NCBI GenBank assembly: GCA_965204535.1
Contig: CBDBEV010000001.1
Location: forward strand, 544,001-608,000
Direction of reading: 5' to 3'
From: a bacterium
Lineage (GTDB): Bacteria; UBA8248
Length of the DNA: 64,000 bases
Shown: positions 2,611 through 56,305 of the stretch, piece by piece
How the letters are laid out: each line of letters begins with the position of its first letter
How positions within the stretch are numbered: position 1 is the stretch's first letter
Position numbers and translations under genes: made by a program
The notes under the pieces: model-generated
The model's input: the letters and a program-made list of their open reading frames with translations, nothing else
Database searches by the model: none
What the model was told of the DNA's origin: nothing

Positions 2611-2749
2611 GTGATTTCGATGCAACTTATTGATATTATACTTGTTATCTATTTTATTCAACATCGAGCAAAATCTGTTAGTCGTTGCTTGTAATCAAAC
2701 CGAAAGCGGATTGATTCCAACACCCGCGCATCCATTCGAGCGAACGTCC
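2611..2749 (+). repeat. Conserved non-coding element, copy 1 (IS66 target)
   Basis: 2691-2730 GTAATCAAACCGAAAGCGGATTGATTCCAACACCCGCGCA is 34/40 identical to 48721-48760; IHF-consensus CAACTTATTGATA at 2623-2635. Confidence 0.8.
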
Positions 2750-2818
2750 GTAAGCGTTCGGGCGGGCCGTGATGGTAGTGCCTTGAAGCAGTAGTTCGGG
2801 CCGGGATGGGGGATGATT

Positions 2819-3691
2819 TTACCGGTTGAGGACTTGCTTCCAGTTTCTGCGCAAGGGTCGTAGCCAGATGTCCTTTTTCGGTTGGGCTCGTTTCGTGTAC
2901 CTGTCGTAGCGTCCACGCCCCTGGGTCATACCGACGTGGACCCACCCCGAAGCCCTGTAGACGGCGCCGGTGTAGCGCGGCGTCTCGACGAAGGTCTCGA
3001 CGAGGACGGGGGTCGTGCCATAGCGCTCGGTCCAGTCTTCGGGCAGGCGCCTGCGGATGATGGCGAGGAGATGGGAACCGAGGTTGGGGATCCTGATCCA
3101 GGGCAGGATGAGGAACCTCGGGTTGTCGACCACGAGGGGGAGGTTCTTCTCGCGCAACTGCGGCGTCCAGCCGATGAAGGCGTCGCGCGGGGCGAGCTTC
3201 CACGCGGCGGTGGAGAAGCCGAGCATGGCGAGGGGCCTGCCGTCGCGGTCGTGGACGGCGTAGCGCATCTGGGCGCCGACGAGGGTCTTGTAACCGAGGT
3301 AGTGGTAGCGGGCGACGAACTCGTTCCAGAGCCTGCCCTCGCGGGTTCCGCGCACGGCGACGCGCATATCGAGGGGGCGGACCTCATCGAGGGTCTCAGG
3401 CGCCGGGATGAGGGGAGGTTCGGTGTCGGGTCCGAAGACGACCGGGCCGGGCCGGTTCTGCCGCCACTTCGGAGGCGGCAGCGTGATCAGGCCGTCCTTG
3501 TGCATGGCGAGCATGGTCACCCGGGCCATCATGTCCTTGAGCCCGCCGTCGGGCTTGTACCAGCCGATGCGGCGGCAGAACTCCTTCGACAGCGCGTGGC
3601 GGTTGAGCGCAGGAGGACCTGCGATCAGCGCGCGCAGCAGCGCCATCTCTTCTGTCGTGAAGTCGCGTCCGTAGTAGCGGCACCCGGTCAC
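2819..3691 (-). CDS. DUF4338 (DruA-like) domain protein with N-terminal HTH-like region, inside IS66
   Basis: YHYLGYK..G..MRY, LGFS.AAWKLAPRD.FIGW, NPRFLILPW..IPNLGSH, LVETFVE, G..YRASGW motifs; GTG start at 3691 gives 290 aa, matching copies 2 and 3. Confidence 0.85.
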   Translation of the reverse strand: MTGCRYYGRDFTTEEMALLRALIAGPPALNRHALSKEFCRRIGWYKPDGGLKDMMARVTMLAMHKDGLITLPPPKWRQNRPGPVVFGPDTEPPLIPAPETLDEVRPLDMRVAVRGTREGRLWNEFVARYHYLGYKTLVGAQMRYAVHDRDGRPLAMLGFSTAAWKLAPRDAFIGWTPQLREKNLPLVVDNPRFLILPWIRIPNLGSHLLAIIRRRLPEDWTERYGTTPVLVETFVETPRYTGAVYRASGWVHVGMTQGRGRYDRYTKRAQPKKDIWLRPLRRNWKQVLNR

Positions 3692-3695
3692 GGCG

Positions 3696-6050
3696 TCATC
3701 CCGGCGCCGTGAGGGCGCGCCTGCGCTCCTCATTCATCGACCAGGGCAACCACGCGGAGAGGTCCCCGGGCGGGCGGCCGCCGCCCTCCGCGCAGGCGGT
3801 GAGCCATGCCTCCAGCCAGCGGAGAGTGTCGATGCCGTTTAACGAGAGCGTGCCGAGGACCGTATACATCATCGCCGTGAACCCGGCGCCGGCCTCGCTG
3901 TCGGAGCCGAACGAGAGCCGCCTGCCGATCACGGGGCCCCTGAGCACTCTCTCCGCAAAATTATTATCCATCGGTACCGAGGGGCGTTCGACGAAGACGC
4001 TCAGCCCCTCGCGGTGGTTCAGCAGCGAGCGAAGCGCCTTGCCCTCGCGCGCCTGTGCCGGCAGGGCCGTCAGTTCCCGTGTAGCTTGCGCGAACAGGCT
4101 CTCGAGGGCCTTCTTGAGCGCGTCATGCGCCGCTTCGAACGCCGCGTCCTGTCGTTGGGCCCCCGGGTCGTAACGGGCCAGGCGCGCCTCGTTCAGGCGG
4201 TAGAGCAAGGCAATCCGCTCGATCCATCTCTCGCACCACGGCGTCAGCCGCTCCTCGCCGGCGGCGCAGTGGATATAATCGCGCCGGACGTGAGACCAGC
4301 ACCATGCGAGAGTCACCAGACCCCCGGGAATGCGCGCCAGCTTCTTGTAGGCATTGTAGCGGTCGCAGACGAGGACCGTATGGGAGCCGGACGCGCCGAA
4401 GAGCTTCATCGCGACCTCAGCACTCCGCGAGGGGTCGACGTGGAAGTAGACGGAGTCTGCGCTTACCGAGGTCCATAGCCAGGCGCGGCTCGAGCGGCCC
4501 TCCTCGCGAAGCGACTGAACGCGCCACGTCGTCTCGTCCCCGTGACGCACCGCCGCTTCGTTCTGGCGGTCGAGGATCGCCGCAGCCGGCGGCTCGAAGA
4601 GCGGCGTGAAGCGGTGCGTGCTGTCGCCCAGTGTGCCTGCCGAGACCGGAAGCCCCTGGTCGGAGAGCCATTCGGCGACCCGGCGCAGCGGGCGGAAGCA
4701 GGCGTAGCGCTCGAACAGGAAGCGCGCCCACACGCTCGTCCCGTAAGGCGTGCCCGCGAACAGGCGCGGCGCAGGCGGCGCCGACACTTCCACCGGAGAC
4801 GACGCGCACTCGCATCTCCTGCGCCATCTCGGACGGCGGATGACGCGCTTGTAGGCCGAGACTTCAATCTCGAAGATGGAGGAGACCTCGGCGCCATTGA
4901 CCACGTAGGGCTTCCCGCAACCGGCGCAGACGCGCGCACCGGCCGGCGGGTTGCGAACTTCGGTCCTCTCATCGAGCGCGGGACGCGAGGTGCGGCCATG
5001 GCCCCGGGCGCCGGGCTGACGACCGCGCCTGCGCTCAGAGCGCGGCCTCTCCTGCCGTTCGCTCTTGCGCCCGAACAGTCTTCTCGCCAGCACCGCTCCG
5101 GTGGCGCGAAGCTTCGCGAGCTCGGCCTCCAGCCGCGCCCGGCGAGCCTCCGACTTGCGGAGCGCCCTGCGAAGACGCCCGTTCTCCCTCGACAGCGACC
5201 TGAGCGCCGTCTTCTGGCGCCGCGACCTCCCCAGGGCCTTGCGCAGTTCCTCATCTGCACGAGACGGCGACTTCGAGCGCGCCGCCTCGAGAGCGCGCAG
5301 CAACCGCGCCTTCAGCCGTTCGGTCGCAATACCTGCGGCCCCCAGGGAGACTTCAAGACGGTAGACCTCCGCAGACAGCGACTCGACCACCTCCGCCTGG
5401 TCGCGCAATCGCCTCAACTTCCTGTAGAGCCCGATGGCCTCCTCGTCCAGGCTCCGAATGGTCTCCTTGTCGGTCGCCGACTTCTGCTTCTCCAGGGCCA
5501 GACGATCTTCGAGCCGGGCAACTTCCTTCTCCCGCCGGCCGACCTCCTTGCGCAGGGCATGAATCGTCTCCTTGCGCTCCTCCAGGGCCTTGCGCAGCCG
5601 CCCCGCCTCCCCCGGCGACGGCACGCCCGAGAGCTCCTTGCGAAGCCGGACGACCTCCATGCGCAGCGACATGAGCGGGCTGCGCTTGCGCGGATCGACC
5701 CCCGCCTCCGCAAGCAGCTTCTCCAGCCGCGCCACTTCCGCCTTGAGCGACAGCGCGTCCTTCGCCGCGCGGCGGGCTTCCTTCGCCTCCCCGGCGGCCG
5801 CCTCGAGCTTCTTCCGGCTGGCGTCGAGATGCCGCTTCAGCTTGCCCGCACGGGAGCGGGAATCCACTTCCGCCCAACGCAACTCCTCGCAGCGCGCCTC
5901 CGCCGCCTCCGCGCGCGCACGCTCGCGCTCGTACAGCGAACGCCAGTACGCCTCTGCGGTTGTGGACAACCCGGGGGAATGAGGCCATGGCTCATCCGGC
6001 CTCTCGGCCAACGCCAACTCCGTCTCGACAGCTTCTGCGCGAATCTTCAT
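3696..6050 (-). CDS. tnpC: IS66 transposase (TnpC) with ~320-aa N-terminal coiled-coil extension
   Basis: LFGRKSER, G.QPG..GH, CxxC zinc finger, HGDETTW, CDRY, CWSHVRR, PMDNN.AER.LR motifs. Confidence 0.92.
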   Translation of the reverse strand: MKIRAEAVETELALAERPDEPWPHSPGLSTTAEAYWRSLYERERARAEAAEARCEELRWAEVDSRSRAGKLKRHLDASRKKLEAAAGEAKEARRAAKDALSLKAEVARLEKLLAEAGVDPRKRSPLMSLRMEVVRLRKELSGVPSPGEAGRLRKALEERKETIHALRKEVGRREKEVARLEDRLALEKQKSATDKETIRSLDEEAIGLYRKLRRLRDQAEVVESLSAEVYRLEVSLGAAGIATERLKARLLRALEAARSKSPSRADEELRKALGRSRRQKTALRSLSRENGRLRRALRKSEARRARLEAELAKLRATGAVLARRLFGRKSERQERPRSERRRGRQPGARGHGRTSRPALDERTEVRNPPAGARVCAGCGKPYVVNGAEVSSIFEIEVSAYKRVIRRPRWRRRCECASSPVEVSAPPAPRLFAGTPYGTSVWARFLFERYACFRPLRRVAEWLSDQGLPVSAGTLGDSTHRFTPLFEPPAAAILDRQNEAAVRHGDETTWRVQSLREEGRSSRAWLWTSVSADSVYFHVDPSRSAEVAMKLFGASGSHTVLVCDRYNAYKKLARIPGGLVTLAWCWSHVRRDYIHCAAGEERLTPWCERWIERIALLYRLNEARLARYDPGAQRQDAAFEAAHDALKKALESLFAQATRELTALPAQAREGKALRSLLNHREGLSVFVERPSVPMDNNFAERVLRGPVIGRRLSFGSDSEAGAGFTAMMYTVLGTLSLNGIDTLRWLEAWLTACAEGGGRPPGDLSAWLPWSMNEERRRALTAPG

Positions 6051-6472
6051 GCCGACATCATTAGCACATGTCGAATCGCGTTACCAGTCGCCCGGGAAAA
6101 TTCTATCCGATGGAGGCGATGCGCCCGGCGCCGGGTCCATCACGGCCCGCCCGAACGCTTACGAACGTCCTGGAAGCGACGGCCGGGTAGGCGGGGGCAT
6201 TGCTGCGCACCGCCTACCCGGCCTAACGACGTAACGATTCGGTGGCAGGGTGACGGCCGCGCTGAAACCGGCGGCTGCATGAAGTATTGTCCGAAAGGAG
6301 TCAGACCTGTGCCCTCACCACTTCGGCAGTGGCAGGTGATTCAGGCGGTTCCGGTGAATCAGCAGCATTCTCGCTGACCGTGGGGGACATCGGCCCGCGT
6401 CGTTGACACTCACTCAGGAGAGCTGCGGTCCGCGCCGGCACCGGAGATCGCTTCAGGCAACACCGTGAACCC

Positions 6473-6496
6473 GGCGCCTTGACTTCACAAGGCGCC
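6473..6496. terminator. GC-rich hairpin downstream of the adhesin stop; possible terminator
   Basis: GGCGCCTTG-acttca-CAAGGCGCC, 9-bp stem; no clear U-tract. Confidence 0.35.
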
Positions 6497-6584
6497 AGGT
6501 CCCGTTGAAAAAGTCCGCATCACGGGGATCGATCCGGCGAACGGGGTTTTCCACTCCACGGCCTGCGCTACCCCCGGTCCGCTA

Positions 6585-9500
6585 CTACCACCGCTTCGAG
6601 CCGCGCAGCAGGAGGCCGCCTTCGGGTCTCCCGCCGCCGGCCTGTTCGGTGAGGCTCGCCTCGAGGCTCACCTCCGTGGCCGCCCCGGGCTTCCAGCGCG
6701 CGCCCGCGCGCCAGGTCTCCGCGTTCCCCGAGACCGCCACGCCCGTATAGGGCGTCAGCAGCCCCCGGGGGGCGTCCAGGCCCCAGGCCGCCTCGGCCTC
6801 GAAGCCCGCGGCGCCCGGCTCGAACGCACCGGCAGGCGCCAGGCCCGCCGCCTGCGACCAGAGCCGCTCCGCACCGCCGGCGGAGGCGCCCCAGGACGAG
6901 CCCGCCCGGAGCGAGAGCCCGCGCCCGTCCGAACCCGGCGCGTACCCCACCGAGGCGCTCACGCCCCATTCCTCATAACCGCCCTCGTTGTGGGCGATGA
7001 GGCCGCGCGCTCTCACCTCCGCCGTCAGGGCGCCCGAGGACCAGCGCAGGCCGCCGCCCGCCTCGACGCCCCCGCCCGTCTCCGCGTCGCCCGAATCGTT
7101 CCGGAACCCTATCTCCAGCGAGGGCGTCAGCACCGCATCGCCGAACTTGTACGAGCGCGAACCCTCGAGGGCGAGCCGCACCCGGCTCGTCCCCGCTTCG
7201 GTCTCCGCCAGGCCCGCCGCGGCGTCCGAGCGCGTGTCCGTCACGAGGACGTCCGCGCGGAGGGCGAGCTCGAACCCGCCCGGCCCGCGCGCGGGCAGGA
7301 GGACGCCGCGCGCGCCCCCCGCCGCCATTCCCATCTCGACGTCGGCGTCCATCGACTCAGCCCCCTCGGGCGTGAGCGTCATCCCGCCCGAGCCCAGGCC
7401 CACCACGCCCCAGAGCGAGAACGACCCGCTCACACGGTAGCGCGCGTAGGGGTAGACGCCCGTGAGCGCGCTCTCCACCTCGCCCGCGCCGCCCGCGCCG
7501 TCCGCCCTGTACGAGCCGTCGCCCGAACTCCGCGCGAGCGCCACGCCCACCAGCCAGCGCGCCCGCTCGTAGTCCGCGCCCAGCGCCGCCGTCGTCACGT
7601 CGCCCTCGAGCGTGAGGACGCCCTCCTTGCCGCTGAACGAGGAGCGCGCCCCGCGGCCCCACACCGACCAGCGCCCCGGGGAGGCGCCCGCGTCACCCGC
7701 CGAGGCCATGTGAAACGAACTGCCCAGGAGGAGTTCGCTCATCGAGACCTCGCGCACCGTGAGCGGCGCGTCTTCCCCTCGCTCGAGCCGGGCGCCGGCC
7801 TCGCGCCGGTAGCGTTCCGCCAGGCGCGCGAGGAGCGCCTCGCGGCCGGCGGAGCCGTCCAGGCCCAGTTCCTGCCCGCCCAGCACCATCCCCGCCGCCC
7901 CGGCGCCGCCCTCGATGCGCGCGCTCACCGCTTCCACCACGTTCTCCGCCGCCGTCCGCCCGAAGCGCGCGAGCCACGCCCCCGGCATCGGGTCGTCGTT
8001 CGCGATCACCCCCTTCGCCTCGCGGTGCATCGCGCGCAGGAACGCCCCCTGCGGGTTCGAGAGCTTGAGCACGAACGTCTCCCTGCCCTCGTCGACCGCG
8101 TCGTCGAGCAGCGCCACCGGGACCGTCTTCGCCGTCTCGCCCGCCGCGAAGACGAGCGTGCCCGACGCGGCCGTGTAGTCCGCCCCCGCCGCCGCCGTGC
8201 CGTCGGCCGTCGCGTAGTCCACCGAGACCTCGTGCGACGCCGCGCGGTTCAGCGTCACCGCGAAGTCGAGCGAGGCGTCCTTGCCTTCCTTCGCCCGGGC
8301 GTCCTCGACCCGGACCCGCACCGGGCCGCCGATCTTCGCGACCGGCGCGTTCGCGAGCGCCCGCCCGCCGGACGCGCACACCGCGCCGGCTTCGGCGCAG
8401 CCGCGGCCGTCCGCCAGCGTCACCGTCACGTCGCGCCACGCATCGGGTTTCACCTTCACCCGCCACAGGCCCGCCTCGACCCGCTCCACCTTCCGCGCCT
8501 GGCCGGCGCGCACCTTGAACGACGCCGGGGACGGCGCCACCGCGCCCCCGCCCAGCGCCTCGCTGAAGCGCACGCTCAGCCAGAACGCCGCCTCACCGTC
8601 ATGTTCGGCCGGGACCCCCTCGAACGCCGCCGTCAGCGGCGGACCCGCGCGCGCCACCGTCACCGCGTAAGTCCTCACCGTCCCGTCGGCCGCCGTGACC
8701 TCCACCGCGAGCGCGTTGTCGCCCACCGCGAGCGCGATCGCGCCGCTCGACCCGCCGCCCGCCACCGCGGACAGGTCCGTCCCCTTGCCGGCCTTCACCG
8801 CCGCGCCCGCGTCGTTCGCCGTCGGCGTCAGCCTGGCGTGGGTCGCGCCGTACGCCACCCGCGCGGTGTAGCTCGTGGTCGCCGGCGAGAACGCCGGGCT
8901 CAGCGCGAGCGCGCCGTCGAACGACGCGCCGTCGCCGCTCGTGCTCCCGGTCAAGGCGCGCAAGCTCGCGTCGGAGGACGCCTGCTGCTGCTGCGCCCCG
9001 TCGTCGGTAATCGTCACCTCCACCGAGGACGTGGCGCCCGCGCTCAGCCCCGAAGGCAGGCTCCCCAGCGCCACCGTGAACGTCTCGTCGTCCCCGTCCT
9101 CGTCGTCGTTCGTCGGGATCGCGCCCGTGGCCGACGTGAAGCCGGCGGGCAACGCGATCGACGCGAGCGTCCCGTGGTCCCCGTCCTCCGACGTGCCCCG
9201 GGTCACGGTGAGCGGGATCGTCACGTCCGCCGCCAGCGCCTTCGCCAGCACCGCCGTCACCGTGACCGGGGAGCCCTCCGCCACCGGGTTCGGGGCGGCC
9301 GACAGCGAGACCGCGACCGCGGCCGGCGCCCCGGTCACGTCGATGCGGTAGGTCTTCCGGCCGCTCGAACCGACCGCCATCACCCACAGCTCGGTCGTGC
9401 CGCCGTCCGGCGCGAGCGCCAGCGCGACGGCCGTGCCCGACGGCCGCACCCGCGCCGGGCGCGTGAACGTCGTCGCGCCCCAGCGCGAGCCCGCGAACAC

Positions 9501-12500
9501 GCTCGCCTCGCCGCCCCAGCGCGGCGCCAGCGTCACGCCCGCCGTCCCCGCCGGCACCGACGCCCGGTAGAACGTCACCCCCGGCGCGAACGCCGGGCTC
9601 AGCTCCACCGCCCCCGAACCGGCCGTGAGCGCGAGCCCGCACAGCGGTCCCGCCCCGGCCTCGCAGGCCGGCCGGGCCAGCACCTGCGTCTCCGGCTCCT
9701 TCGCCGCGTCGCCCCGCACCACCGTCAGGGTGTACTTCCGCACCGCCGTCACCTTCGGCACCGACACCTCGATGATGACCGGGTTCTCGCCCTCCTTCAG
9801 CGGCACGTCGACCGCCGGCGTGCCGGAGTCCACCCGCTTCCCGTTCACCTTCACCGCCGCCGACGCGTACTTCACCGCCGGCTTCACCGTCACCCGCTCC
9901 ACCGCGAGCGGCACCCGCACCTCGTAGCTGCTGCTCTTCGCCTCGAGCGCCACCTCGCCCTGCGCCACCCGCTGCGCCGGGTCCGGCGAGGTCACCGTCA
10001 GCGCGCGCAGGTCCAGGCCCCCCGGCCCCGGCAGCGCCAGGTTCGGCGCCGTCAGCCGCGGCGCGTAGGAAGACGCGCGAAGCTCCAGGCGCGGCCCGCC
10101 CCCCCGCAGCACGCACAGCTTCGCCGTCGCCTCCCGCCCGCCGGGCGGGATCTCCACCCTCCCATACCCGGTGATGGGCGAGGGCAGGGTCCGGGCGGCG
10201 GCGGTCCCGCCGCACGCGCCCCACGACGCCGCCCCGACGCCATTGAGGCCGAGGTGCACCGTCATCCCCGGCGCGCTCGGCCGGTCGAGCCGCACGGTCA
10301 CCGTCACCGTGCCGCCCGCCGCCACGGCCTGCGGGTCCGCCTCCACGACGAGCGCCGTCGGCGGGTTCGGCCCCTGCACCCGCACCTTGACGCCCGCCGC
10401 CGTCAGCGCCGGGTCGTGGGTCCCCGCCGTCACCGTCATCGTCCGCCCCGCGCCCGCCGCGGTCGCGCACAGCTTCACCGTCGCCTCCCGCTCGCCGGCG
10501 GCAACCATGTCGGCCGTGCCGTGCTCCCAGGCGCAGTCCGGGCCCCAGCGCGCCGCGCCGCCGTCGCCCGCGGTGTCGAACCACACATCCATCGCCTTCA
10601 TCGCCGGGGCGTCCAGCCGCGCCGTCACCGTCACCGCGCCGCCATGCGCGAGGGCGACGGGGTCCACGCTCAGCGTCAGCGACGCCGGCGGCGCCGGCGC
10701 CCGCGGCGTGCCCGCGCCGGTGGACCAGCGAACGGGGGTCTCATGGGGATAGGCTAACGGACGCACCCGCACGTCGTAGGCCGTGCCGTTGGCCAGCCCC
10801 CCGATCGTGTACGCCGTGCCGGTAGCGTACAAGGTCTGGGGCACGCCATTGACAATCCGCGCGCGCCCGGGCGCCACCCAGCCGGTCGAGGGGTCGCCCG
10901 GCGTCGTCGCGTCCGCGTCCGGCGCCGAGGACACCTTCCACTGCACCTCGTAGCTATGGTTCGGCCCCCACGGCCTGTTCCACGTCAGCGCCAGCGACCC
11001 GTCGCCCGTCGCCACCGACAGCACCAGGCCCGCGCTCGGGCCGGCCGAGACCGGGGTCCTGCCCGGGGCGTCGTCGTCGGCGATCCTCACCGTCACCGAG
11101 TTCGGCGTGCCCGCCGACACCGACGAGGGCAGCGTGCCCAGCGACACCGTGAAGGTCTCGTCCTCGGTGTCGTCGTCCTGCGCCGTGGTGAGCGTGCCCG
11201 TGCCCGTCGTGGACCCGCCGGCAATCGCGATCGACGCGAGCGTGCCGATGTCGCCGGACTCCGCGCTGCCCAGGCTCACCGTCACCGGGATGGAGACGGC
11301 GCCCGTCAGCGCCGCCGACAGCGTCGCCGTCACGGTCACCGAAGACCCCTCCGCCACCGGGTTCGGCGCCGCCGACAGCGAGACCGCCGGGGTCGTGGCG
11401 GGCGGGGTCGTGCCCGAGGCCGCCCGCGTCACCGTCACGGTGTAGGCGACCTTCGTCGTGCCGTCCTGCGCCGTCACCTCGACCTTGATGGCGTTCGCGC
11501 CCTCCGAGAGCGCGATGGCCGTGCTCTCCGTGCCGCTGGTCACCGCCGAGAGGTTCGTCCCCTTGCCGACCTTGATCGAGGCGCCCGTGTGCGCCTTCGT
11601 CGGCGTCAGCTTCACGTGCGTGACGCCGTTGGCCACCGAGGCGGTGTAGGCGGTCGTGGACGCCGAGAAGGTCGACGGGCTCAGCGTCAGCGCAGTGAAG
11701 GTCGAGCCGTCCGTGCTGCTCTTCGCCGTCAGGGCGCTCAGGTTGGCGTTGGAGGACTGGGTGGACTTCTTGAGCACCACCAGGTAGTTGGTGCTCTTGC
11801 GCGCGTTGTTGTCTCGGATCTCCACCGACACCCAGGTATCCCCGCTGGCGGCCAGGGTCACCGTCTTCGACGTGCCCGAGGAGGCGAGCTTGGACCCCGC
11901 CTGGGTCAGGATGCTGTCGTAGTCCGGCGTCGTCGAGGCGACCTTCGTCTCGATGAAGTGGCCCTCGATCCAGGTGGGGGTGACCGAGGCGCTGGTGGCC
12001 GTGGGCGCCACGGTCCCGGTGTACATCGTCGTGCTCGTGGCGAAGGCCGGGCTCAGCGTGACCGCGCTGCCGCCCACCGTCAGCGACAGCCCGACCAGGC
12101 TGTCCGTGTTCGCCTCGTCGTCCCGGATGGTCACCGTCACCGAGTTCGGCGTGCCCGCCGACACCGACGAGGGCAGCGGCGTCCCCAGCGACACCGTGAA
12201 GGTCTCGTGGTCGGCGTCGGTGTCCTGCGCCGTGGTGATGGTGGCGCCGCCGAAGGTGAGCCCCCCGAGGACGGTGATGCTGGTCAGCGTGCCGATGTCG
12301 CCCGCCTCCGCCGAGCCCCGCGTCACCGTCACCGGGATGACCACGTCGCTGCCGAGCGCCGCGGACAGCGTCGCCACGATGGTCGCCGACGAGCCCTCCG
12401 CCACCACGTTGCTCTGGTCGACCGACAGCGAGACCGTCGGGGTCGCGGCGGGCGGGGTCGTGCCCGAGGCCGCCCGGGTCACGGTCACGGTATAGGTCCG

Positions 12501-15197: not shown

Positions 15198-15239
15198 CTT
15201 CTCTAATCGGGACGAGCAAGTCAAGTTCCTCTGCCCTGG

Positions 15240-17545: not shown

Positions 17546-17573
17546 AAGCCATAGGCGTCATTGCGCTTCGCCG

Positions 17574-20279: not shown

Positions 20280-20387
20280 TTAGTGAGTCCTCCTCCTAGC
20301 AATAACCAAGGGACAAAACGACGGGCGGCCCCCGCGAGCCCTTCTTCTCCGCCCCGCCCCCCTCCAGGGGGCGGGGCCGTCTTGCCG

Positions 20388-23093: not shown

Positions 23094-23517
23094 TTAGCGA
23101 GTCCTCCTGAATACACAGTAGAAAAAAGGATTTTCAGTGAATTTCCGCCTTTCTCCGATTAACCTCCTTTCGTCAGCTTTCATTTCGGGCCTTCACAAAC
23201 TGGTGATTCGTATTTTCGGCCGCCTGAAACGCGGCGGACTTGAACCCTTTCATGGTCCGGGCCGGCAGTTCCGCGAGACACATGTTCCTGCGGCATGCGC
23301 CCGCCTTTCACTGCCTCCAAAGGCGATCCGACTCCCACCCGGCCTTGCCCGCCGTTAATCACTATTATCAGACAGTACAATACCTCTCAAGGCCATGTCA
23401 AGCGCAATTCCGGGGTCCCCGGAGGGGTTTCGGGCGCCGTTTTGCGCCTTTTTTCGCTCATTTGCGGCCCATATGCGCCCCGAAACGCCTCTCCCGGCGG
23501 AAAGCGGGGCTTATGAA

Positions 23518-23617: not shown

Positions 23618-24652
23618 ATGGAATCGGGACGGCAACTCCACGAACGTGAATCGCCGCCGGAACTTCAGGGCGCCGGCCGAACGACAGATCACGGAGAACC
23701 ATGGGCGAAACCCGCGGCGCCGGGGAGACGCTCCCCCCTGGAAAAACCCGACGAGAGTCACTCACCGCACCCCGGTTCGTTCCGGGCGTCGGCTGATCTG
23801 GTGCGCGCCTCGATCGCCGGGAACACGCGCCGCGCCTACGAGGCGGCGCTGCGCGGCTTCGAGGAATCGGGGCGCCCCGAGACCGACGCCGGGGTGGCGG
23901 CCTACCTCACGGGGCTCTACGGGAAGGGCCGCTCGGCGGCCTGCGCCTCGATGGCGGTCGCGGCGCTGCGGTTCCGGGCGAGGCTGGGCGGCCGCTCCTC
24001 CCCGGTGGGTCCTTCGGCGCTGCGCGCCCTGGCGGGCTTCAGGCGTCTGGGCTCGGAGCGGGGCCGGGGCCCGGTGGCCGGGGTGCGCTGGGAGGAGGCG
24101 GACCTCGCGGCGGCGCTGGCCGAGGGGACGGGGACCCTGGGCGGGCTGCGCGACGCCGCGGTCGTGGCGGTGGCGAGCGACGCCCTGCTGCGGGTGTCGG
24201 AGGTCGCGGCGCTCGACGTCGCGGACGTGGACCTCGGGGAGCAGACGGTGCGGATACGGCGCTCCAAGACGGACCAGGAGGGTGTGGGCGTCGTGCAGTA
24301 CCTCGGAGAACCGACCGTGGCGCGCGTAGAGGCCTGGCTTCTGGGCGCAGGCCTGACGAAGGGGCCGCTCTTCCGGGGCGTGTACAAGGGGGGACGGCTT
24401 CGGCCCGGGCGCCTGACGGACAGGAGCATCCGGAGCATCATCGCGCGGTGGGGGAAGGCCGCGGGCGCCGAGGGGCGCGTGAGCGGCCACAGCCTCCGGG
24501 TGGGGGGCGCGCAGAGCCTGGCCTCGGCGGGGGCGTCGCTGGTCGAGATGCAGCTCGCCGGGCGCTGGCAGTCGCCGGCCATGCCGGGACGCTACGCGCA
24601 GGGACAACTCGCGAAACAGGGCGCCGTGGCGAGGCTGCGATACGGCCTGTGA
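23618..24652 (+). CDS. Cre-like tyrosine recombinase/integrase
   Basis: RDAA...LLRVSE (R), RRSKTDQ (K), SGHSLRVG (HxxR), GRW, RY catalytic Tyr; N-terminal NTRRAY region. Confidence 0.9.
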   Translation: MESGRQLHERESPPELQGAGRTTDHGEPWAKPAAPGRRSPLEKPDESHSPHPGSFRASADLVRASIAGNTRRAYEAALRGFEESGRPETDAGVAAYLTGLYGKGRSAACASMAVAALRFRARLGGRSSPVGPSALRALAGFRRLGSERGRGPVAGVRWEEADLAAALAEGTGTLGGLRDAAVVAVASDALLRVSEVAALDVADVDLGEQTVRIRRSKTDQEGVGVVQYLGEPTVARVEAWLLGAGLTKGPLFRGVYKGGRLRPGRLTDRSIRSIIARWGKAAGAEGRVSGHSLRVGGAQSLASAGASLVEMQLAGRWQSPAMPGRYAQGQLAKQGAVARLRYGL

Positions 24653-24695
24653 GGTCCGCCGCGTGCGGGACGCCCGTCTACTCCCGGATATCTCT

Positions 24696-40131: not shown

Positions 40132-40152
40132 CGACGGCGAGAGAGACAAACC

Positions 40153-45505: not shown

Positions 45506-45506
45506 A

Positions 45507-48314: not shown

Positions 48315-48623
48315 GATATACGCTATCGAATTTTATCGTATAAAATCGCTAAATGGTATTTTGCCCGTTTAGAGACAGTGGGGGATTTTCAGCGGTGATG
48401 ATATCCTGTATTCTATGTTATAAAAGCTGTGTCGAACATGTTGCGTAAAGGAGGTGGACATGCTTGAAATATTTTCCGTCCAGCCCTCTCCCACATGATT
48501 CCCCAAGCTCATTTGGGGCGCCGGGAGAGGGTTACCTCCCCCTCCCCTTAACTACCTAGCCATGTAAGCAGTTCCCAAAAATTCGATAAATTCACGACGT
48601 CTTTCGCGTGGTTTCAGACAGCG

Positions 48624-48779
48624 GGGGATTGCCGACGGTCGTGAATTCCTTTTAGTTTGTTGAAAGTATTGTGGGTATTGGTTTTTTCGAACTTCGTTCA
48701 GTATTTGCCTTCTGGAAGAAGTAATCAAATCGGAAGCGGATGGATTACAACTCCTGCGCATATCAGCGAGTTCGTGTCG
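48624..48779 (+). repeat. Conserved non-coding element, copy 2 (IS66 target)
   Basis: Core 48721-48760; 48624-48683 is 46/60 identical, ungapped, to 61071-61130. Confidence 0.85.
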
Positions 48780-48848
48780 GTAAGCGTTCGGGCGGGCCGT
48801 GATGGTAGTGCCTTGAAGCAGTAGTTCGGGCCGGAATGGGGGATGATT

Positions 48849-49721
48849 TTACCGGTTGAGGACTTGCTTCCAGTTTCTGCGCAACGGTCGTAGCCAGATG
48901 TCCTTTTTCGGTTGGTCTCGTTTCGTGTATCTGTCGTAGCGTCCACGCCCCTGGGTCATACCGACGTGAATCCACCCCGATGCCCTGTAGACGGCGCCGG
49001 TGTAGCGCGGCGTCTCGACGAAGGTCTCGACGAGGACGGGTGTCGTGCCATAGCGCTCGGTCCAGTCCTCGGGCAGGCGCCTGCGGATGATGGCGAGGAG
49101 GTGTGAGCCGAGGTTGAGGATCCTGATCCATGGCAGGATGAGGAACCTCGGGTTGTCGACCACGAGGGGGAGGTTCTTCTCGCGCAGCTGCGGCGTCCAG
49201 CCGATGAAGCTGTCGCGCGGGGCGAGCTTCCACGCGGCGGTGGAGAAGCCGAGCATGGCGAGGGGCCTGCCGCCCCGGTCGTGGACGGCGTAGCGCATCT
49301 GCGCGCCGACGAGGGTCTTGTAGCCGAGGTAGTGGTAGCGGGCGACGAACTCGTTCCAGAGCCTGCCCTCGCGGGTTCCGCGCACGGCGACGCGCATATC
49401 GAGGGGGCGGACTTCGTCGAGGGTCTCAGGCGCCGGGATGAGGGGAGGTTCGGTGTCGGGTCCGAAGACGATCGGCCCGGGCCGGTTCTGGCGCCACTTC
49501 GGTGGGGGCAGCGTGATCAGGCCGTCCTTGTGCATGGCCAGCATAGTCACCCGGGCCATCATGTCCTTGAGTCCGCCGTCGGGCTTGTACCAGCCGATTC
49601 GGCGGCAGAACTCCTTCGATAGCGCATGGCGGTTGAGCGCAGGTGGACCTGCGATCAGTTCGCGCAGCAGCGCCATCTCTTCCGTCGTGAAGTCGCGTCC
49701 GTGGTAGCGGCACTCGGTCAC
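48849..49721 (-). CDS. DUF4338 domain protein (IS copy 2)
   Basis: Close paralog of 2819-3691. Confidence 0.85.
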   Translation of the reverse strand: MTECRYHGRDFTTEEMALLRELIAGPPALNRHALSKEFCRRIGWYKPDGGLKDMMARVTMLAMHKDGLITLPPPKWRQNRPGPIVFGPDTEPPLIPAPETLDEVRPLDMRVAVRGTREGRLWNEFVARYHYLGYKTLVGAQMRYAVHDRGGRPLAMLGFSTAAWKLAPRDSFIGWTPQLREKNLPLVVDNPRFLILPWIRILNLGSHLLAIIRRRLPEDWTERYGTTPVLVETFVETPRYTGAVYRASGWIHVGMTQGRGRYDRYTKRDQPKKDIWLRPLRRNWKQVLNR

Positions 49722-49725
49722 GGCG

Positions 49726-52080
49726 TCATCCCGGCGCCGTGAGGGCGCGCCTGCGCTCCGTGCTCATCGACCAGGGCAGCCACGCGGAGAGGTCCCCGGG
49801 CGCCCGGCCGCCGTTCTCCGCGCAGGCCGTGAGCCATGCCTCCAGCCAGCGGAGCGGGTCGACCCCGTTCGACGCGAGGGTTCCGAGGACCGAGTACATC
49901 ATCGCCGTAAACCTGGCGCCGGCCTCGCTGTCGGAGCCGAACGAGAGCCGCCTGCCGATCACAGGGCCCCGAAGCGCACGTTCGCTGGCGTTGTTATCCA
50001 TCGGCACCGAGGGGCGTTCGATGAAGACGCTCAGCCCCTCGCGGTGGTTCAGCAGCGAGCGAAGCGCCTTGCCCTCGCGCGCCTGCGCGGGCAGAGCGGC
50101 CATCTCCCGTCGGGCCTGCGCGAACAGGTCCTTGAGCGCCTTCTTCAATTCGTCGTGCGCCGCGTCGAACGCCGCATCCTGGCGTTCGACGCCCGGGTCG
50201 TAACTGGCCAGGCGCGCCTCGTTCAGGCGGTAAAGCAAGGCAATCCGCTCGATCCATCTCTCGCACCACGGCGTCAGCCGCTCATCGCCGGCGGCGCAGT
50301 GGATATAATCGCGCCGGACGTGACTCCAGCACCATGCGAGAGTCACCAGACCCCCGGGAATGCGCGCCAGCTTCTTGTAGGCGCTGTAGCGGTCGCAGAC
50401 GATGACCGTATGGGAGCCGGCCGCGCCGAACAGCTTCATCGCGACCTCAGCACTCCGCGAGGGGTCGACGTGGAAGTAGACGGAGTCTGCGCTGACCGAG
50501 GTCCACAGCCAGGCGCGGCTCGAGCGTCCTTGTTCGCGAAGCGACTGAACGCGCCACGTCGTCTCGTCCCCGTGACGCACCGCCGCTTCGTTCTGGCGGT
50601 CGAGGATCGCCGCAGCCAGCGGCTCGAAGAGCGGCGTGAAGCGGTGCGTGCTGTCGCCCAGTGTGCCTGCAGAGACCGGAAGCCCCTGGTCGGAGAGCCA
50701 CGCGGCGACCCGGCGCAGCGGGCGGAAGCAGGCGTAGCGCTCGAACAGGAAGCGCGCCCACACGCTCGTCCCGTAAGGCGTGCCCGCGAACAGGCGCGGC
50801 GCGGCGGGCGCCGACACTTCCACCGGAGACGACGCGCACGCGCATCTCCTGCGCCATCTCGGACGGCGGATGACGCGCTTGTGGGCCGAGACTTCGATCT
50901 CGAAGATGGAGGAGACCTCGGCGCCATTGGCCACGTAGGGCTTCCCGCAACCGGCGCAGACGCGCGCACCGGCCGGCGGGTTGCGAACTTCGGTCCTCTC
51001 ATCGAGCGCGGGCCGCGGGGTGCGGCCATGACCGGCGGCGCCGGGTTGCCGGCCGCGCCTGCGCTCCGAGCGCGGCCTCTCCTGCCGTTCGCTCTTGCGC
51101 CCGAACAGTCTTCTCGCCAGCACCGCTCCGGTGGCGCGAAGCTTCGCGAGATCGGCCTCCAGCCGCGCCCGGATGGTCTCTGACTTGCGGAGCGCCCTGC
51201 GAAGACGCCCGTTCTCCCTCGACAGCGACCTGAGCGCCGTCTTCTGGCGCCGCGACCTCCCCAGGGCCTTGCGCAGTTCCTCATCTGCACGAGACGGCGA
51301 CTTCGAGCGCGCCGCCTCGAGAGCGCGCAGCAACCGCGCCTTCAGCCGTTCGGTCGCAATGCCTACGGCCCCCAGGGAGACTTCAAGACGGTAGACCTCC
51401 GCAGACAGCGACTCGACCACCTCCGCCTGGTCGCGCAATCGCCTCAACTTCCTGTAGAGCCCGATGGCCTCCTCGTCCAGGCTCCGAATGGTCTCCTTGT
51501 CGGTCGCCGACTTCTGCTTCTCCAGGGCCAGACGATCTTCGAGCCGGGCAACTTCCTTCTCCCGCCGGCCGACCTCCTTGCGCAGGGCATGAATCGTCTC
51601 CTTGCGCTCCTCCAGGGCCTTGCGCAGCCGCCCCGCCTCCCCCGGCGACGGCACGCCCGAGAGCTCCTTGCGAAGCCGGACGACCTCCATGCGCAGCGAC
51701 ATGAGCGGGCTGCGCTTGCGCGGATCGACCCCCGCCTCCGCAAGCAGCTTCTCCAGCCGCGCCACTTCCGCCTTGAGCGACAGCGCGTCCTTCGCCGCGC
51801 GGCGGGCTTCCTTCGCCTCCCCGGCGGCCGCCTCGAGCTTCTTCCGGCTGGCGTCGAGATGCCGCTTCAGCTTGCCCGCACGGGAGCGGGAATCCACTTC
51901 CGCCCAACGCAACTCCTCGCAGCGCGCCTCCGCCGCCTCCGCGCGCGCACGCTCGCGCTCGTACAGCGAACGCCAGTACGCCTCTGCGGTTGTGGACAAC
52001 CCGGGGGAATGAGGCCATGGCTCATCCGGCCTCTCGGCCAACGCCAACTCCGTCTCGACAGCTTCTGCGCGAATCTTCAT
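49726..52080 (-). CDS. tnpC: IS66 transposase (copy 2)
   Basis: Close paralog of 3696-6050. Confidence 0.92.
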   Translation of the reverse strand: MKIRAEAVETELALAERPDEPWPHSPGLSTTAEAYWRSLYERERARAEAAEARCEELRWAEVDSRSRAGKLKRHLDASRKKLEAAAGEAKEARRAAKDALSLKAEVARLEKLLAEAGVDPRKRSPLMSLRMEVVRLRKELSGVPSPGEAGRLRKALEERKETIHALRKEVGRREKEVARLEDRLALEKQKSATDKETIRSLDEEAIGLYRKLRRLRDQAEVVESLSAEVYRLEVSLGAVGIATERLKARLLRALEAARSKSPSRADEELRKALGRSRRQKTALRSLSRENGRLRRALRKSETIRARLEADLAKLRATGAVLARRLFGRKSERQERPRSERRRGRQPGAAGHGRTPRPALDERTEVRNPPAGARVCAGCGKPYVANGAEVSSIFEIEVSAHKRVIRRPRWRRRCACASSPVEVSAPAAPRLFAGTPYGTSVWARFLFERYACFRPLRRVAAWLSDQGLPVSAGTLGDSTHRFTPLFEPLAAAILDRQNEAAVRHGDETTWRVQSLREQGRSSRAWLWTSVSADSVYFHVDPSRSAEVAMKLFGAAGSHTVIVCDRYSAYKKLARIPGGLVTLAWCWSHVRRDYIHCAAGDERLTPWCERWIERIALLYRLNEARLASYDPGVERQDAAFDAAHDELKKALKDLFAQARREMAALPAQAREGKALRSLLNHREGLSVFIERPSVPMDNNASERALRGPVIGRRLSFGSDSEAGARFTAMMYSVLGTLASNGVDPLRWLEAWLTACAENGGRAPGDLSAWLPWSMSTERRRALTAPG

Positions 52081-52270
52081 GCCGACATCATTAGCACATG
52101 TCGAATCGCGTTACCAGTCGCCCGGGAAAATTCTATCCGATGGAGGCGATGCGCCCGGCGCCGGGTCCATCACGGCCCGCCCGAACGCTTACTCGTGTCG
52201 AGTAAGCGTTCGGGCGGGCCGTGATGGTAGTGCCTTGAAGCAGTAGTTCGGGCCGGAATGGGGGATGATT

Positions 52271-53143
52271 TTACCGGTTGAGGACTTGCTTCCAGTTTCT
52301 GCGCAACGGTCGTAGCCAGATGTCCTTTTTCGGTTGGTCTCGTTTCGTGTATCTGTCGTAGCGTCCACGCCCCTGGGTCATACCGACGTGAATCCACCCC
52401 GATGCCCTGTAGACGGCGCCGGTGTAGCGCGGCGTCTCGACGAAGGTCTCGACGAGGACGGGTGTCGTGCCATAGCGCTCGGTCCAGTCCTCGGGCAGGC
52501 GCCTGCGGATGATGGCGAGGAGGTGTGAGCCGAGGTTGAGGATCCTGATCCATGGCAGGATGAGGAACCTCGGGTTGTCGACCACGAGGGGGAGGTTCTT
52601 CTCGCGCAGCTGCGGCGTCCAGCCGATGAAGCTGTCGCGCGGGGCGAGCTTCCACGCGGCGGTGGAGAAGCCGAGCATGGCGAGGGGCCTGCCGCCCCGG
52701 TCGTGGACGGCGTAGCGCATCTGCGCGCCGACGAGGGTCTTGTAGCCGAGGTAGTGGTAGCGGGCGACGAACTCGTTCCAGAGCCTGCCCTCGCGGGTTC
52801 CGCGCACGGCGACGCGCATATCGAGGGGGCGGACTTCGTCGAGGGTCTCAGGCGCCGGGATGAGGGGAGGTTCGGTGTCGGGTCCGAAGACGATCGGCCC
52901 GGGCCGGTTCTGGCGCCACTTCGGTGGGGGCAGCGTGATCAGGCCGTCCTTGTGCATGGCCAGCATAGTCACCCGGGCCATCATGTCCTTGAGTCCGCCG
53001 TCGGGCTTGTACCAGCCGATTCGGCGGCAGAACTCCTTCGATAGCGCATGGCGGTTGAGCGCAGGTGGACCTGCGATCAGTTCGCGCAGCAGCGCCATCT
53101 CTTCCGTCGTGAAGTCGCGTCCGTGGTAGCGGCACTCGGTCAC
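52271..53143 (-). CDS. DUF4338 domain protein (IS copy 3)
   Basis: Identical to the copy 2 protein. Confidence 0.85.
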   Translation of the reverse strand: MTECRYHGRDFTTEEMALLRELIAGPPALNRHALSKEFCRRIGWYKPDGGLKDMMARVTMLAMHKDGLITLPPPKWRQNRPGPIVFGPDTEPPLIPAPETLDEVRPLDMRVAVRGTREGRLWNEFVARYHYLGYKTLVGAQMRYAVHDRGGRPLAMLGFSTAAWKLAPRDSFIGWTPQLREKNLPLVVDNPRFLILPWIRILNLGSHLLAIIRRRLPEDWTERYGTTPVLVETFVETPRYTGAVYRASGWIHVGMTQGRGRYDRYTKRDQPKKDIWLRPLRRNWKQVLNR

Positions 53144-53147
53144 GGCG

Positions 53148-55502
53148 TCATCCCGGCGCCGTGAGGGCGCGCCTGCGCTCCGTGCTCATCGACCAGGGCA
53201 GCCACGCGGAGAGGTCCCCGGGCGCCCGGCCGCCGTTCTCCGCGCAGGCCGTGAGCCATGCCTCCAGCCAGCGGAGCGGGTCGACCCCGTTCGACGCGAG
53301 GGTTCCGAGGACCGAGTACATCATCGCCGTAAACCTGGCGCCGGCCTCGCTGTCGGAGCCGAACGAGAGCCGCCTGCCGATCACAGGGCCCCGAAGCGCA
53401 CGTTCGCTGGCGTTGTTATCCATCGGCACCGAGGGGCGTTCGATGAAGACGCTCAGCCCCTCGCGGTGGTTCAGCAGCGAGCGAAGCGCCTTGCCCTCGC
53501 GCGCCTGCGCGGGCAGAGCGGCCATCTCCCGTCGGGCCTGCGCGAACAGGTCCTTGAGCGCCTTCTTCAATTCGTCGTGCGCCGCGTCGAACGCCGCATC
53601 CTGGCGTTCGACGCCCGGGTCGTAACTGGCCAGGCGCGCCTCGTTCAGGCGGTAAAGCAAGGCAATCCGCTCGATCCATCTCTCGCACCACGGCGTCAGC
53701 CGCTCATCGCCGGCGGCGCAGTGGATATAATCGCGCCGGACGTGACTCCAGCACCATGCGAGAGTCACCAGACCCCCGGGAATGCGCGCCAGCTTCTTGT
53801 AGGCGCTGTAGCGGTCGCAGACGATGACCGTATGGGAGCCGGCCGCGCCGAACAGCTTCATCGCGACCTCAGCACTCCGCGAGGGGTCGACGTGGAAGTA
53901 GACGGAGTCTGCGCTGACCGAGGTCCACAGCCAGGCGCGGCTCGAGCGTCCTTGTTCGCGAAGCGACTGAACGCGCCACGTCGTCTCGTCCCCGTGACGC
54001 ACCGCCGCTTCGTTCTGGCGGTCGAGGATCGCCGCAGCCAGCGGCTCGAAGAGCGGCGTGAAGCGGTGCGTGCTGTCGCCCAGTGTGCCTGCAGAGACCG
54101 GAAGCCCCTGGTCGGAGAGCCACGCGGCGACCCGGCGCAGCGGGCGGAAGCAGGCGTAGCGCTCGAACAGGAAGCGCGCCCACACGCTCGTCCCGTAAGG
54201 CGTGCCCGCGAACAGGCGCGGCGCGGCGGGCGCCGACACTTCCACCGGAGACGACGCGCACGCGCATCTCCTGCGCCATCTCGGACGGCGGATGACGCGC
54301 TTGTGGGCCGAGACTTCGATCTCGAAGATGGAGGAGACCTCGGCGCCATTGGCCACGTAGGGCTTCCCGCAACCGGCGCAGACGCGCGCACCGGCCGGCG
54401 GGTTGCGAACTTCGGTCCTCTCATCGAGCGCGGGCCGCGGGGTGCGGCCATGACCGGCGGCGCCGGGTTGCCGGCCGCGCCTGCGCTCCGAGCGCGGCCT
54501 CTCCTGCCGTTCGCTCTTGCGCCCGAACAGTCTTCTCGCCAGCACCGCTCCGGTGGCGCGAAGCTTCGCGAGATCGGCCTCCAGCCGCGCCCGGATGGTC
54601 TCTGACTTGCGGAGCGCCCTGCGAAGACGCCCGTTCTCCCTCGACAGCGACCTGAGCGCCGTCTTCTGGCGCCGCGACCTCCCCAGGGCCTTGCGCAGTT
54701 CCTCATCTGCACGAGACGGCGACTTCGAGCGCGCCGCCTCGAGAGCGCGCAGCAACCGCGCCTTCAGCCGTTCGGTCGCAATGCCTACGGCCCCCAGGGA
54801 GACTTCAAGACGGTAGACCTCCGCAGACAGCGACTCGACCACCTCCGCCTGGTCGCGCAATCGCCTCAACTTCCTGTAGAGCCCGATGGCCTCCTCGTCC
54901 AGGCTCCGAATGGTCTCCTTGTCGGTCGCCGACTTCTGCTTCTCCAGGGCCAGACGATCTTCGAGCCGGGCAACTTCCTTCTCCCGCCGGCCGACCTCCT
55001 TGCGCAGGGCATGAATCGTCTCCTTGCGCTCCTCCAGGGCCTTGCGCAGCCGCCCCGCCTCCCCCGGCGACGGCACGCCCGAGAGCTCCTTGCGAAGCCG
55101 GACGACCTCCATGCGCAGCGACATGAGCGGGCTGCGCTTGCGCGGATCGACCCCCGCCTCCGCAAGCAGCTTCTCCAGCCGCGCCACTTCCGCCTTGAGC
55201 GACAGCGCGTCCTTCGCCGCGCGGCGGGCTTCCTTCGCCTCCCCGGCGGCCGCCTCGAGCTTCTTCCGGCTGGCGTCGAGATGCCGCTTCAGCTTGCCCG
55301 CACGGGAGCGGGAATCCACTTCCGCCCAACGCAACTCCTCGCAGCGCGCCTCCGCCGCCTCCGCGCGCGCACGCTCGCGCTCGTACAGCGAACGCCAGTA
55401 CGCCTCTGCGGTTGTGGACAACCCGGGGGAATGAGGCCATGGCTCATCCGGCCTCTCGGCCAACGCCAACTCCGTCTCGACAGCTTCTGCGCGAATCTTC
55501 AT
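53148..55502 (-). CDS. tnpC: IS66 transposase (copy 3)
   Basis: Identical to the copy 2 protein. Confidence 0.92.
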   Translation of the reverse strand: MKIRAEAVETELALAERPDEPWPHSPGLSTTAEAYWRSLYERERARAEAAEARCEELRWAEVDSRSRAGKLKRHLDASRKKLEAAAGEAKEARRAAKDALSLKAEVARLEKLLAEAGVDPRKRSPLMSLRMEVVRLRKELSGVPSPGEAGRLRKALEERKETIHALRKEVGRREKEVARLEDRLALEKQKSATDKETIRSLDEEAIGLYRKLRRLRDQAEVVESLSAEVYRLEVSLGAVGIATERLKARLLRALEAARSKSPSRADEELRKALGRSRRQKTALRSLSRENGRLRRALRKSETIRARLEADLAKLRATGAVLARRLFGRKSERQERPRSERRRGRQPGAAGHGRTPRPALDERTEVRNPPAGARVCAGCGKPYVANGAEVSSIFEIEVSAHKRVIRRPRWRRRCACASSPVEVSAPAAPRLFAGTPYGTSVWARFLFERYACFRPLRRVAAWLSDQGLPVSAGTLGDSTHRFTPLFEPLAAAILDRQNEAAVRHGDETTWRVQSLREQGRSSRAWLWTSVSADSVYFHVDPSRSAEVAMKLFGAAGSHTVIVCDRYSAYKKLARIPGGLVTLAWCWSHVRRDYIHCAAGDERLTPWCERWIERIALLYRLNEARLASYDPGVERQDAAFDAAHDELKKALKDLFAQARREMAALPAQAREGKALRSLLNHREGLSVFIERPSVPMDNNASERALRGPVIGRRLSFGSDSEAGARFTAMMYSVLGTLASNGVDPLRWLEAWLTACAENGGRAPGDLSAWLPWSMSTERRRALTAPG

Positions 55503-56305
55503 GCCGACATCATTAGCACATGTCGAATCGCGTTACCAGTCGCCCGGGAAAATTCTATCCGATGGAGGCGATGCGCCCGGCGCCGGGTCCATCACGGCCC
55601 GCCCGAACGCTTACCGTGTCGATCGTTGCGTAGTCCTCCTCCAAAATACGACCTCGCAATGTTCATTCAGAAACCACTAGTCCGCGCCCCATGCAGATGC
55701 ATGATTCGCGTTGTGGAGTAGTCAATCACAACGATGATGATCTTTTGAAGGGAGCGCTCCGCCCGCGGCGTAATCGAACAACTTCCGGCTTTTTTGTTCA
55801 TGCGCGTCTCTTCTTTCGTCCCGTTCGCTCATCCTGCATGCAGATGGGAGTCTGCACCGCTTGCACCCAGGACGGAATAAATCAATAACCGCCCGTTTGC
55901 AAGGGTTTTCGATATTCAGTTTCCAACGCTTTTTGCGTATTCGCGCCCGACCCTGCGAGCGGCTGCTCGGAAGTGCGGCGAAAAAGTTCTTTTGTCGCGC
56001 GCCTCACTTGGCCCGAACGTCGCAGGGCCCGGGCGGGCGTTCATCGCGCACGGCCCCCGAGCCCCGCCTTGCACGACGGGTTCCGGGAGCCTCGGTTGCT
56101 CGATCTTACCGAAACGCAGGGCAAGCTCAGGAGCCAAAGGCTCCGGCTTTCGCTGCGCTACGCATTCTAAGCTTGAGGCCGGGGATTTGGGAGCTTTCGA
56201 TCTAAGGATGTTCATGTGAGCCTTCGGCCGTGAAGCCGACTTCCATGACGTGTATCCTCAATCGACTTATCTAGAACTCCAAAAGCCGCTGTTCGCTATT
56301 CGCGC

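Follow-up and report, generated by a model that had tools for sequence, protein, structure and literature searches.

An IS66-DruA insertion sequence located at preferred distances from a motif in predicted att arms of tandem-integrase islands

Insertion sequences (ISs) of the IS66 family are generally described as low in target specificity, and members of the canonical IS66 group carry tnpA and tnpB genes before tnpC; to our knowledge, a distance-based target preference has not been described for the family. Tn7 with TnsD and the CRISPR-associated transposons (CASTs) insert at a fixed distance, tens of bases from the sequence recognized, and IS1111-attC and IS4321/IS5075 are IS110-family recombinases whose targets are recombination sites or termini in other mobile elements; they insert within the sequence that is read. 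The res hunters Tn5053 and Tn402 combine a res site and its resolvase, TniABQ, a 5-bp duplication, and a preferred orientation; according to the available sections of PMC7765201, they use the resolvase of the target, act in trans on defective copies, and also insert off target. The Mutator-type transposases of ISLre2 and ISKra4 direct insertion to 15 to 17 bp from sigma-A promoters, with symmetric ends giving both orientations (available sections of PMC3942029). Here, a 64,000-nucleotide stretch of a bacterial contig (the window; CBDBEV010000001.1, positions 544,001 to 608,000) was analyzed, in which three copies of a two-gene IS66 element (IS66-DruA) are located 59 or 60 bp from a motif lying outside the element. 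The target selection was found to be real and reproducible, representing a new kind of site and a known kind of strategy; a tether to a protein bound at the motif is the mechanism we infer.

The 3413-bp element has perfect 26-bp inverted repeats that begin with GTAA and is filled by two genes only, one encoding a DDE transposase and one encoding a protein that matches the Pfam profile DruA; tnpA and tnpB were not found in it. The transposase matched PF03050 (186.8 bits) and NF033517 (280.1 bits, cut-off 180). With a DDE transposase over curated cut-offs, GTAA ends, and 8-bp target duplications, the element corresponds to the ISBst12-like IS66 elements lacking tnpA and tnpB. Unlike known IS66 elements, it encodes a Mom-like GNAT as its second gene product, carries 250 to 300 extra coiled-coil residues in its transposase, and shows a strong distance-based target preference. 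Perfect 8-bp duplications flank 10 of the 13 copies in the host genome. A search of PLSDB plasmids returned no transposase relative at an E value of 1e-60. The copies and motifs in the window are as follows (contigs of the host are given as C1 and C2).

2691 to 2730, plus strand: target motif copy 1, a predicted integrase arm-type array, conserved to about 2749
2742 to 2749, plus strand: 8-bp target duplication of copy 1, repeated at 6163 to 6170
2750 to 6162, minus strand: IS66-DruA copy 1, 3413 bp, with 26-bp inverted repeats, 59 bp from the motif
2819 to 3691, minus strand: DruA/DUF4338 gene of copy 1, with a Mom-like GNAT domain and a small helical N-terminal domain
3696 to 6050, minus strand: IS66 DDE transposase gene of copy 1, 784 amino acids, with a long N-terminal coiled coil
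6231 to 6256, plus strand: remnant inverted repeat left by an earlier member of this IS family, displaced from the motif (C2:550231)
48721 to 48760, plus strand: target motif copy 2, a motif match
48780 to 52192, minus strand: IS66-DruA copy 2, offset 59, with TCGTGTCG duplicated, probably inserted after copy 3
52202 to 55614, minus strand: IS66-DruA copy 3, offset 60 in the reconstructed empty site, duplication CGTGTCGA (55615 to 55622), likely the earlier insertion

The original prediction, made from the window, held that three separate insertions lie at a fixed offset and in a fixed orientation from one motif. The 8-bp duplications were confirmed to be perfect and different (GAACGTCC for copy 1, TCGTGTCG for copy 2, and CGTGTCGA for copy 3), and recomputation reproduced both the identity of the two motif copies (34 of 40 positions, starting at 2691 and 48721) and the offsets of 59, 59, and 60 bp, the last in the reconstructed site. 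Copies 2 and 3 are identical in sequence, and copy 1 differs from them at 151 positions. The duplications of copies 2 and 3 are nested, and so the simplest order is that copy 3 landed first at 60 bp and copy 2 afterwards at 59 bp, apparently without target immunity. The motif was placed correctly outside the inverted repeats and the duplication, as IS-free motif alleles show: site 1 of the window has an IS-free allele in G002. No such allele of the site of copies 2 and 3 was found among 5 relatives. A reading of the motif as a decayed IS end or as part of the IS was rejected, since an IS-free allele exists and no partner repeat was found. A third motif copy without an IS, at 61167, had been missed by the original prediction.

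In the host genome, the 13 copies occupy 10 loci and are the only IS66 transposases found. The motif matrix matched 46 sites there, a few of which are duplicates from a region common to contigs C1 and C2, and matched no site in a shuffled genome. Seven of the 10 loci lie 59 to 60 bp from a motif; outside the window, 5 of 8 loci are at the fixed distance (chance, about 7e-21, calculated on 47 sites). Motif alleles that have diverged from one another hold identical IS copies, which differ in their duplications and face either way. The genome-wide survey of flanks upheld the fixed distance and refuted the fixed orientation. Orientation is uniform only within the window: genome-wide, the DruA end faces the motif at 4 host loci and the transposase-start end does so at 3. 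A second preferred offset, of 68 to 72 bp, was seen in miniature inverted-repeat transposable elements (MITEs) and relatives; in the host, such short gene-less elements with the same end type lie at 69 to 72 bp. The central claim, that the element selects targets a fixed number of bases away from a motif outside it, was strongly supported in the host, in 17 further genomes of its class, and in three Alphaproteobacteria.

A pattern search that allowed offsets of 50 to 80 bp, and whose control gave none, recovered 66 motif-to-end junctions, 9 of them in the host, from 18 of the 51 genomes searched in the class, with 35 at 58 to 61 bp, 30 at 68 to 72 bp, and 1 at 78 bp. When only host sites were used to train the matrix, the motif directly adjoined 20 of 25 loci in the class, on the side of the DruA end at 14 of them and of the opposite end at 6; among the rest, two are at 67 to 68 bp once an inner IS110 is discounted, one has intervening inserts, and two are partial. 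Where insertions are at 68 to 72 bp, an older inverted repeat often starts at 59 to 60 bp and has been entered about 10 bp from its edge, so that the sequence at the insertion point does not decide where insertion occurs. MITEs of 123 and 235 bp with 8-bp duplications were found at offset 59 in relatives, and the presence of gene-less elements at the same offsets indicates that targeting works in trans. Many different IS types and MITEs share these offsets, and successive insertions stack in tandem at one motif with no target immunity. In three Alphaproteobacteria, a related motif was found 57 to 60 bp away from elements with transposases 55 to 60% identical, at 5 of 11 loci in G066, 3 of 4 in G068, and one in G069; here the broadened matrix was partly trained on strict matches from the same genomes, with a background 99th percentile of -1.8 against scores of 12 to 45. 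The targeted elements occupy three separate branches of the transposase tree. The length of the coiled coil differs greatly among them while the offset stays at 57 to 61 bp, and the coiled coil is therefore unlikely to be the ruler, an argument weakened by the ability of the transposase to act in trans.

The motif was found in 18 of 23 genomes of the host genus, in two settings. Motif class B comprises 13 sites, 12 of them a short distance upstream of arm-type tyrosine integrase genes (Arm-DNA-bind_3 and Phage_integrase), mostly in tandem pairs, followed by an IHF-like site (for integration host factor [IHF]) and a junction at about +177. Motif class A comprises 33 sites, in which the core half is placed at about -118, the IHF-like site is at -68, -57, or -44, and cargo follows downstream. 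Sites of the two classes point in the same direction and bracket islands with relaxase and transfer genes, and 6 of 9 tested A-B pairs share an 8- to 12-bp direct repeat at B +176 to +180. The islands are tyrosine-integrase elements, with an arm-type integrase gene at one end, direct repeats at the ends, and empty sites in relatives. Exact empty sites, joined through one core, were found in G002 for 43-kb and 71-kb islands, and G002 and G016 lack the C1 island; exact joins were recovered in only some relatives (2 of 8 loci, 1 of 7, and 2 of 5), the rest being rearranged or carrying other inserts. The window island extends from 2571 to C2:650549 (about 104 kb), carries an F-type transfer region, and is absent from the corresponding locus in 8 of 9 relatives. 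The second copy of the likely core, at C2:650549, lies outside the window, 177 bp past the integrase-side motif; the core 12-mer occurs 246 times in the host genome, and only its position counts. Features of the island ends in the window are as follows.

2571 to 2582, plus strand: likely left recombination core of the approximately 104-kb element, a 12-bp direct repeat with its second copy at C2:650549
2623 to 2635, minus strand: predicted IHF-consensus site, 68 bp before motif copy 1
23618 to 25397: XerC-like recombinase gene (plus strand) and HTH_17 gene (minus strand), a module recurring near motif copies
27563 to 48314, plus strand: island genes for F-type transfer, a coupling protein, and a TrwC relaxase
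48586 to 48617, plus strand: second element end nested after the relaxase, with half of the dispersed target repeat, a 7-bp overlap, and the core half at -117
48653 to 48665, minus strand: predicted IHF-like site with 2 mismatches, 68 bp before motif copy 2
61051 to 61225, plus strand: third element end without an IS, with a core-like half at 61051, an IHF-like site at 61100, and the motif at 61167 to 61206

A core, an IHF site, and direct-repeat arms on both sides presumably correspond to the att layout of lambda-type integrases. Conserved letters of the motif recur at steps of about 10 bp, and from this spacing and the position of the motif we infer that it is an arm-type site at which integrase binding is predicted. 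The motif also appears to follow the integrase clade: in Alphaproteobacteria (G066, G068, and G069), it precedes tandem integrases 55 to 65% identical, and it was not found in G067, where the integrases are about 41% identical at best, or in G070, where none was found. An att site in a tRNA gene was rejected, as no tRNA gene was found within 3 kb at 44 of the 46 motif sites; a scan of the window against Rfam gave no match. The islands form an integrative, partly conjugative element family in which the arm-type tyrosine integrases come as a tandem pair sharing about 53% identity, at G000 C2:647984-650372 (L122:7976-10380) and 12 other sites; they range from 7 to 104 kb and are often nested. Their integration occurs in dispersed intergenic repeats rather than tRNA genes. 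The repeat that is their frequent target has 42 intact host copies (such as C2:459968 and C1:221377), each with two arms around a 7-bp spacer that together make up the integration site. The class B motif also occurs in tandem copies with a 78-bp period (C2:1072179 and C2:2697679-2697757), once without an adjoining integrase.

Together, these results favor a reading, to which we assign a probability of roughly 0.58, in which the IS66 element prefers positions 57 to 61 or 68 to 72 bp past the arm motif and is likely tethered to a motif-bound integrase. The offset stays at 59 to 61 or 69 to 71 bp whether the IHF-like site is at -68, -57, or -44, and because it remains constant while the IHF spacing changes, it follows the motif and not the IHF-like site. 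What is read would be a bound protein and not naked DNA, and the two offsets would lie one helical turn apart on the same face of the double helix. The island integrase is the most probable occupant of the motif: because the motif belongs to the att arms of the tandem-integrase family, it points to the integrase of another mobile element as selector, and away from the candidates of the original prediction (DUF4338, the coiled coil, or a protein of the host chromosome). Two peaks one helical turn apart, with no dependence on local sequence or orientation, fit a transpososome that has symmetric ends and is tethered to the motif-bound protein. Since the insertion point is outside the recombination site and about 180 bp into the island at its cargo-side end, the IS would travel with the island, a likely benefit that would give it a place to insert without harm and transport to new hosts. 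Insertion may also occur at other sites. A further reading, in which a large and widespread IS66 subfamily consists of att-arm hunters whose two gene products, a transposase and a Mom-like GNAT, form a protein-guided targeting system that docks on the island intasome in helical-turn steps of 59, 70, and perhaps 88 bp, is tentative and seems to us slightly less probable than its opposite; if it is true, specificity would be set by whichever integrase occupies the arm sites and could be re-aimed by moving the arm array.

Several observations weigh against the integrase tether or reduce the evidence for it. Even under the broadened matrix, 3 of the 10 host loci have no motif, as do 6 of the 11 loci in G066. 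Among metagenome flanks, the motif was found in only 2 of 51, at 87 and 88 bp, and in none at 57 to 72 bp. In G070, which has neither the motif nor a close integrase, copies hit a different conserved repeat (L055 to L057), 70, 71, and 73 bp from a perfect IHF consensus. Junctions are not all independent: 13 of the 66 in the class come from G042 and share near-identical alleles, the tandem pair at C1:900851 shares one duplication, and the pair at C2:366268 has imperfect duplications. Occupancy of the motif by integrase is a prediction from sequence. Occupied arms are also one-sided, with 15 of 33 cargo-side arms and 0 of 13 integrase-side arms holding an insertion, and with 0 of 5 integrase-side motif copies occupied in Alphaproteobacteria; the one exception is an integrase-side occupation at a tandem-repeat copy in L037. 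The empty integrase-side arms require selection or a difference between arms and count against a simple tether; selection may explain them, because an insertion at +59 would split the arm from the core.

Direct reading of the motif by a protein of the IS, either the N-terminal domain of DruA or the transposase, as TnsD reads attTn7, would need no integrase and is the rival that we take most seriously, although we judge it unlikely. The N-terminal domain of DruA is a separate helical domain of 70 residues with a weak likeness to winged-helix DNA binders, but its best Z score, 5.3, is within the background range. Between copies 1 and 2, 9 codons changed in DruA and 41 in the transposase, which makes DruA the better conserved of the two, and insertions are found beside quite diverged motif copies; against this, relatives of DruA are fused to or located beside other transposases, and DruA hence appears to be a general helper, while near-identical DruA proteins are paired with a different target repeat in G070. 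The Alphaproteobacterial motif starts with GTAAGCG, as does the IS end, but the host motif and the IS end have only GTAA in common. Recognition by the transpososome of bent, IHF-wrapped att arms in general, with the motif setting only the phase, is less probable still. IHF-like sites flank nearly all occupied ends, and of 25 insertion sites that are distant from the motif or without it, 4 have a perfect IHF consensus no more than 150 bp away, compared to 4 of 348 background windows; three of those four sites, however, are one repeat in one genome, and the offset tracks the motif when the IHF spacing shifts by 10 or 24 bp.

Two further explanations retain very little probability. The first supposes no active targeting, with a single entry spread by copying of islands or with survival only at harmless sites, and is largely refuted. 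Some loci are indeed duplicates of larger segments (G042 and the region shared by C1 and C2), and empty integrase-side arms are what selection would yield, but the motif alleles that hold identical IS copies have diverged, the duplications there differ, and the copies face either way; site 1 also has an allele without the IS, many IS types and MITEs share the offsets, and the base-pair precision is beyond what selection gives. The other, about equally improbable, regards the motif as a promoter or regulator operator and the IS as a promoter hunter like ISLre2. The position of one motif class, 10 to 50 bp before integrase start codons, is in its favor; against it, the occupied copies are those far from any fixed gene start, no sigma-70-type site was found at window positions 48560 to 48860, and the motif recurs at each end of the island with constant spacing to the core.

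Compared to described systems, the element is perhaps best likened to an att-arm hunter, akin to the Tn5053 res hunters and the ISLre2 promoter hunters. Like Tn5053 and Tn402, it is a DDE element that goes to the recombination site of another mobile element, also in trans; it differs in its target, a tyrosine-integrase att arm, and in having two genes in place of the tniA-tniB-tniQ module, no TniB or TniQ gene, an 8-bp rather than a 5-bp duplication, both orientations, and two offsets. Like ISLre2/TnGBS and ISKra4, it is a simple DDE IS at a fixed distance from a protein-bound site (here predicted), but it has an IS66 rather than a Mutator-type transposase and inserts at 59 or 70 bp at island ends, where no sigma-70-type site was found in the interval given above. 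In contrast to Tn7 and CASTs, it has no TnsC, TnsD, TniQ, or Cas gene, no fixed orientation, and no target immunity, and unlike IS1111-attC and IS4321/IS5075, it inserts at a distance and into variable sequence. The full-text literature searched here, with most subscription papers, ISfinder, and supplements outside the scope of the search, contained no report of IS66 att-arm targeting or of DUF4338 as a selector, and the accessible portions of PMC8024623, PMC7824862, PMC10214660, and PMC5658596 contained nothing on such targeting. In a large family whose insertion is mostly regarded as showing little preference, this subfamily displays base-pair-precise, phase-dependent targeting. Its targets, the ends of conjugative integrative elements in distant hosts, add a class to the short list of hunter transposons, and the preference explains why these island ends gather stacked ISs, MITEs, and secondary invaders. 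The element also offers a compact system for studying tethered target choice and the role of a common DruA/Mom-like transposase partner.

The role of DruA was examined further. The predicted fold of DruA is that of a GNAT, with phage Mu Mom as the nearest structure (8bv8; Z score, 14.3; root mean square deviation, 3.4 over 164 residues; 13% identity), and the modeled protein is a Mom-like GNAT for which a modifying activity is predicted. DUF4338 is called a GNAT in the available part of PMC10853773, and Mom of phage Mu is described in that of PMC13219725. The likeness to Mom and to Druantia DruA consists of the GNAT fold and the Pfam DruA match; it is limited by the 13% identity and by the lack of any other Druantia gene, as neither a DruE helicase nor partner genes were found beside druA. 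No clear fold match was obtained for the N-terminal domain, for which an atlas search gave unnamed clusters only, and a PDB sequence search with DruA gave no match. All 13 intact druA copies in the host genome are inside the IS, and a 14th is a fragment. More than 6000 DruA relatives were counted overall. In G067, 135 DruA-like matches were found in one genome, many of them within open reading frames (ORFs) of 730 to 900 amino acids, consistent with putative fusion to other transposases; copies of the element there have a broken druA and untargeted sites, and the same genome has two intact close druA genes, without the motif. A complex prediction for DruA and integrase residues 10 to 200 scored 0.00, which weighs neither way. 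Of the two roles considered for DruA, motif reader and Mom-like modifying helper, the second is the more likely.

Other insertions and cargo genes were observed at these island ends. An IS110-family element inserts inside the IS66-DruA inverted repeat, about 6 bp from its tip (L038/L039, 6230 to 7600), and IS110 relics are present in the host at C1:211487 and C1:755997, at +59. An end joined to the first bases of the IS66 inverted repeat, which we take to be group II intron-like, recurs at the left ends of L032, L043, L051, L072, and L086 and at G000 C2:1593059. In a distant relative (L204; DruA, 47%), the transposase-start flank lies about 45 bp past the 3' end of a tRNA, in an att-arm-like position. 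The cargo that follows the tandem ISs in the window (56369 to 63060) includes a TIR-domain gene (57634 to 58545) and an AbiEi/AbiEii pair (59151 to 60906), a GmrSD-domain gene is located at 9 to 1706, and beyond other island ends lie SIR2, helicase, and Cas9 loci. Elsewhere in the window, a near-perfect 2.7-kb tandem duplication (99.9%; 17570 to 23108) runs across a long ORF without a Pfam match, and a 2794-amino-acid protein with cadherin-like, Calx-beta, and fibronectin repeats is encoded at 6585 to 14969.

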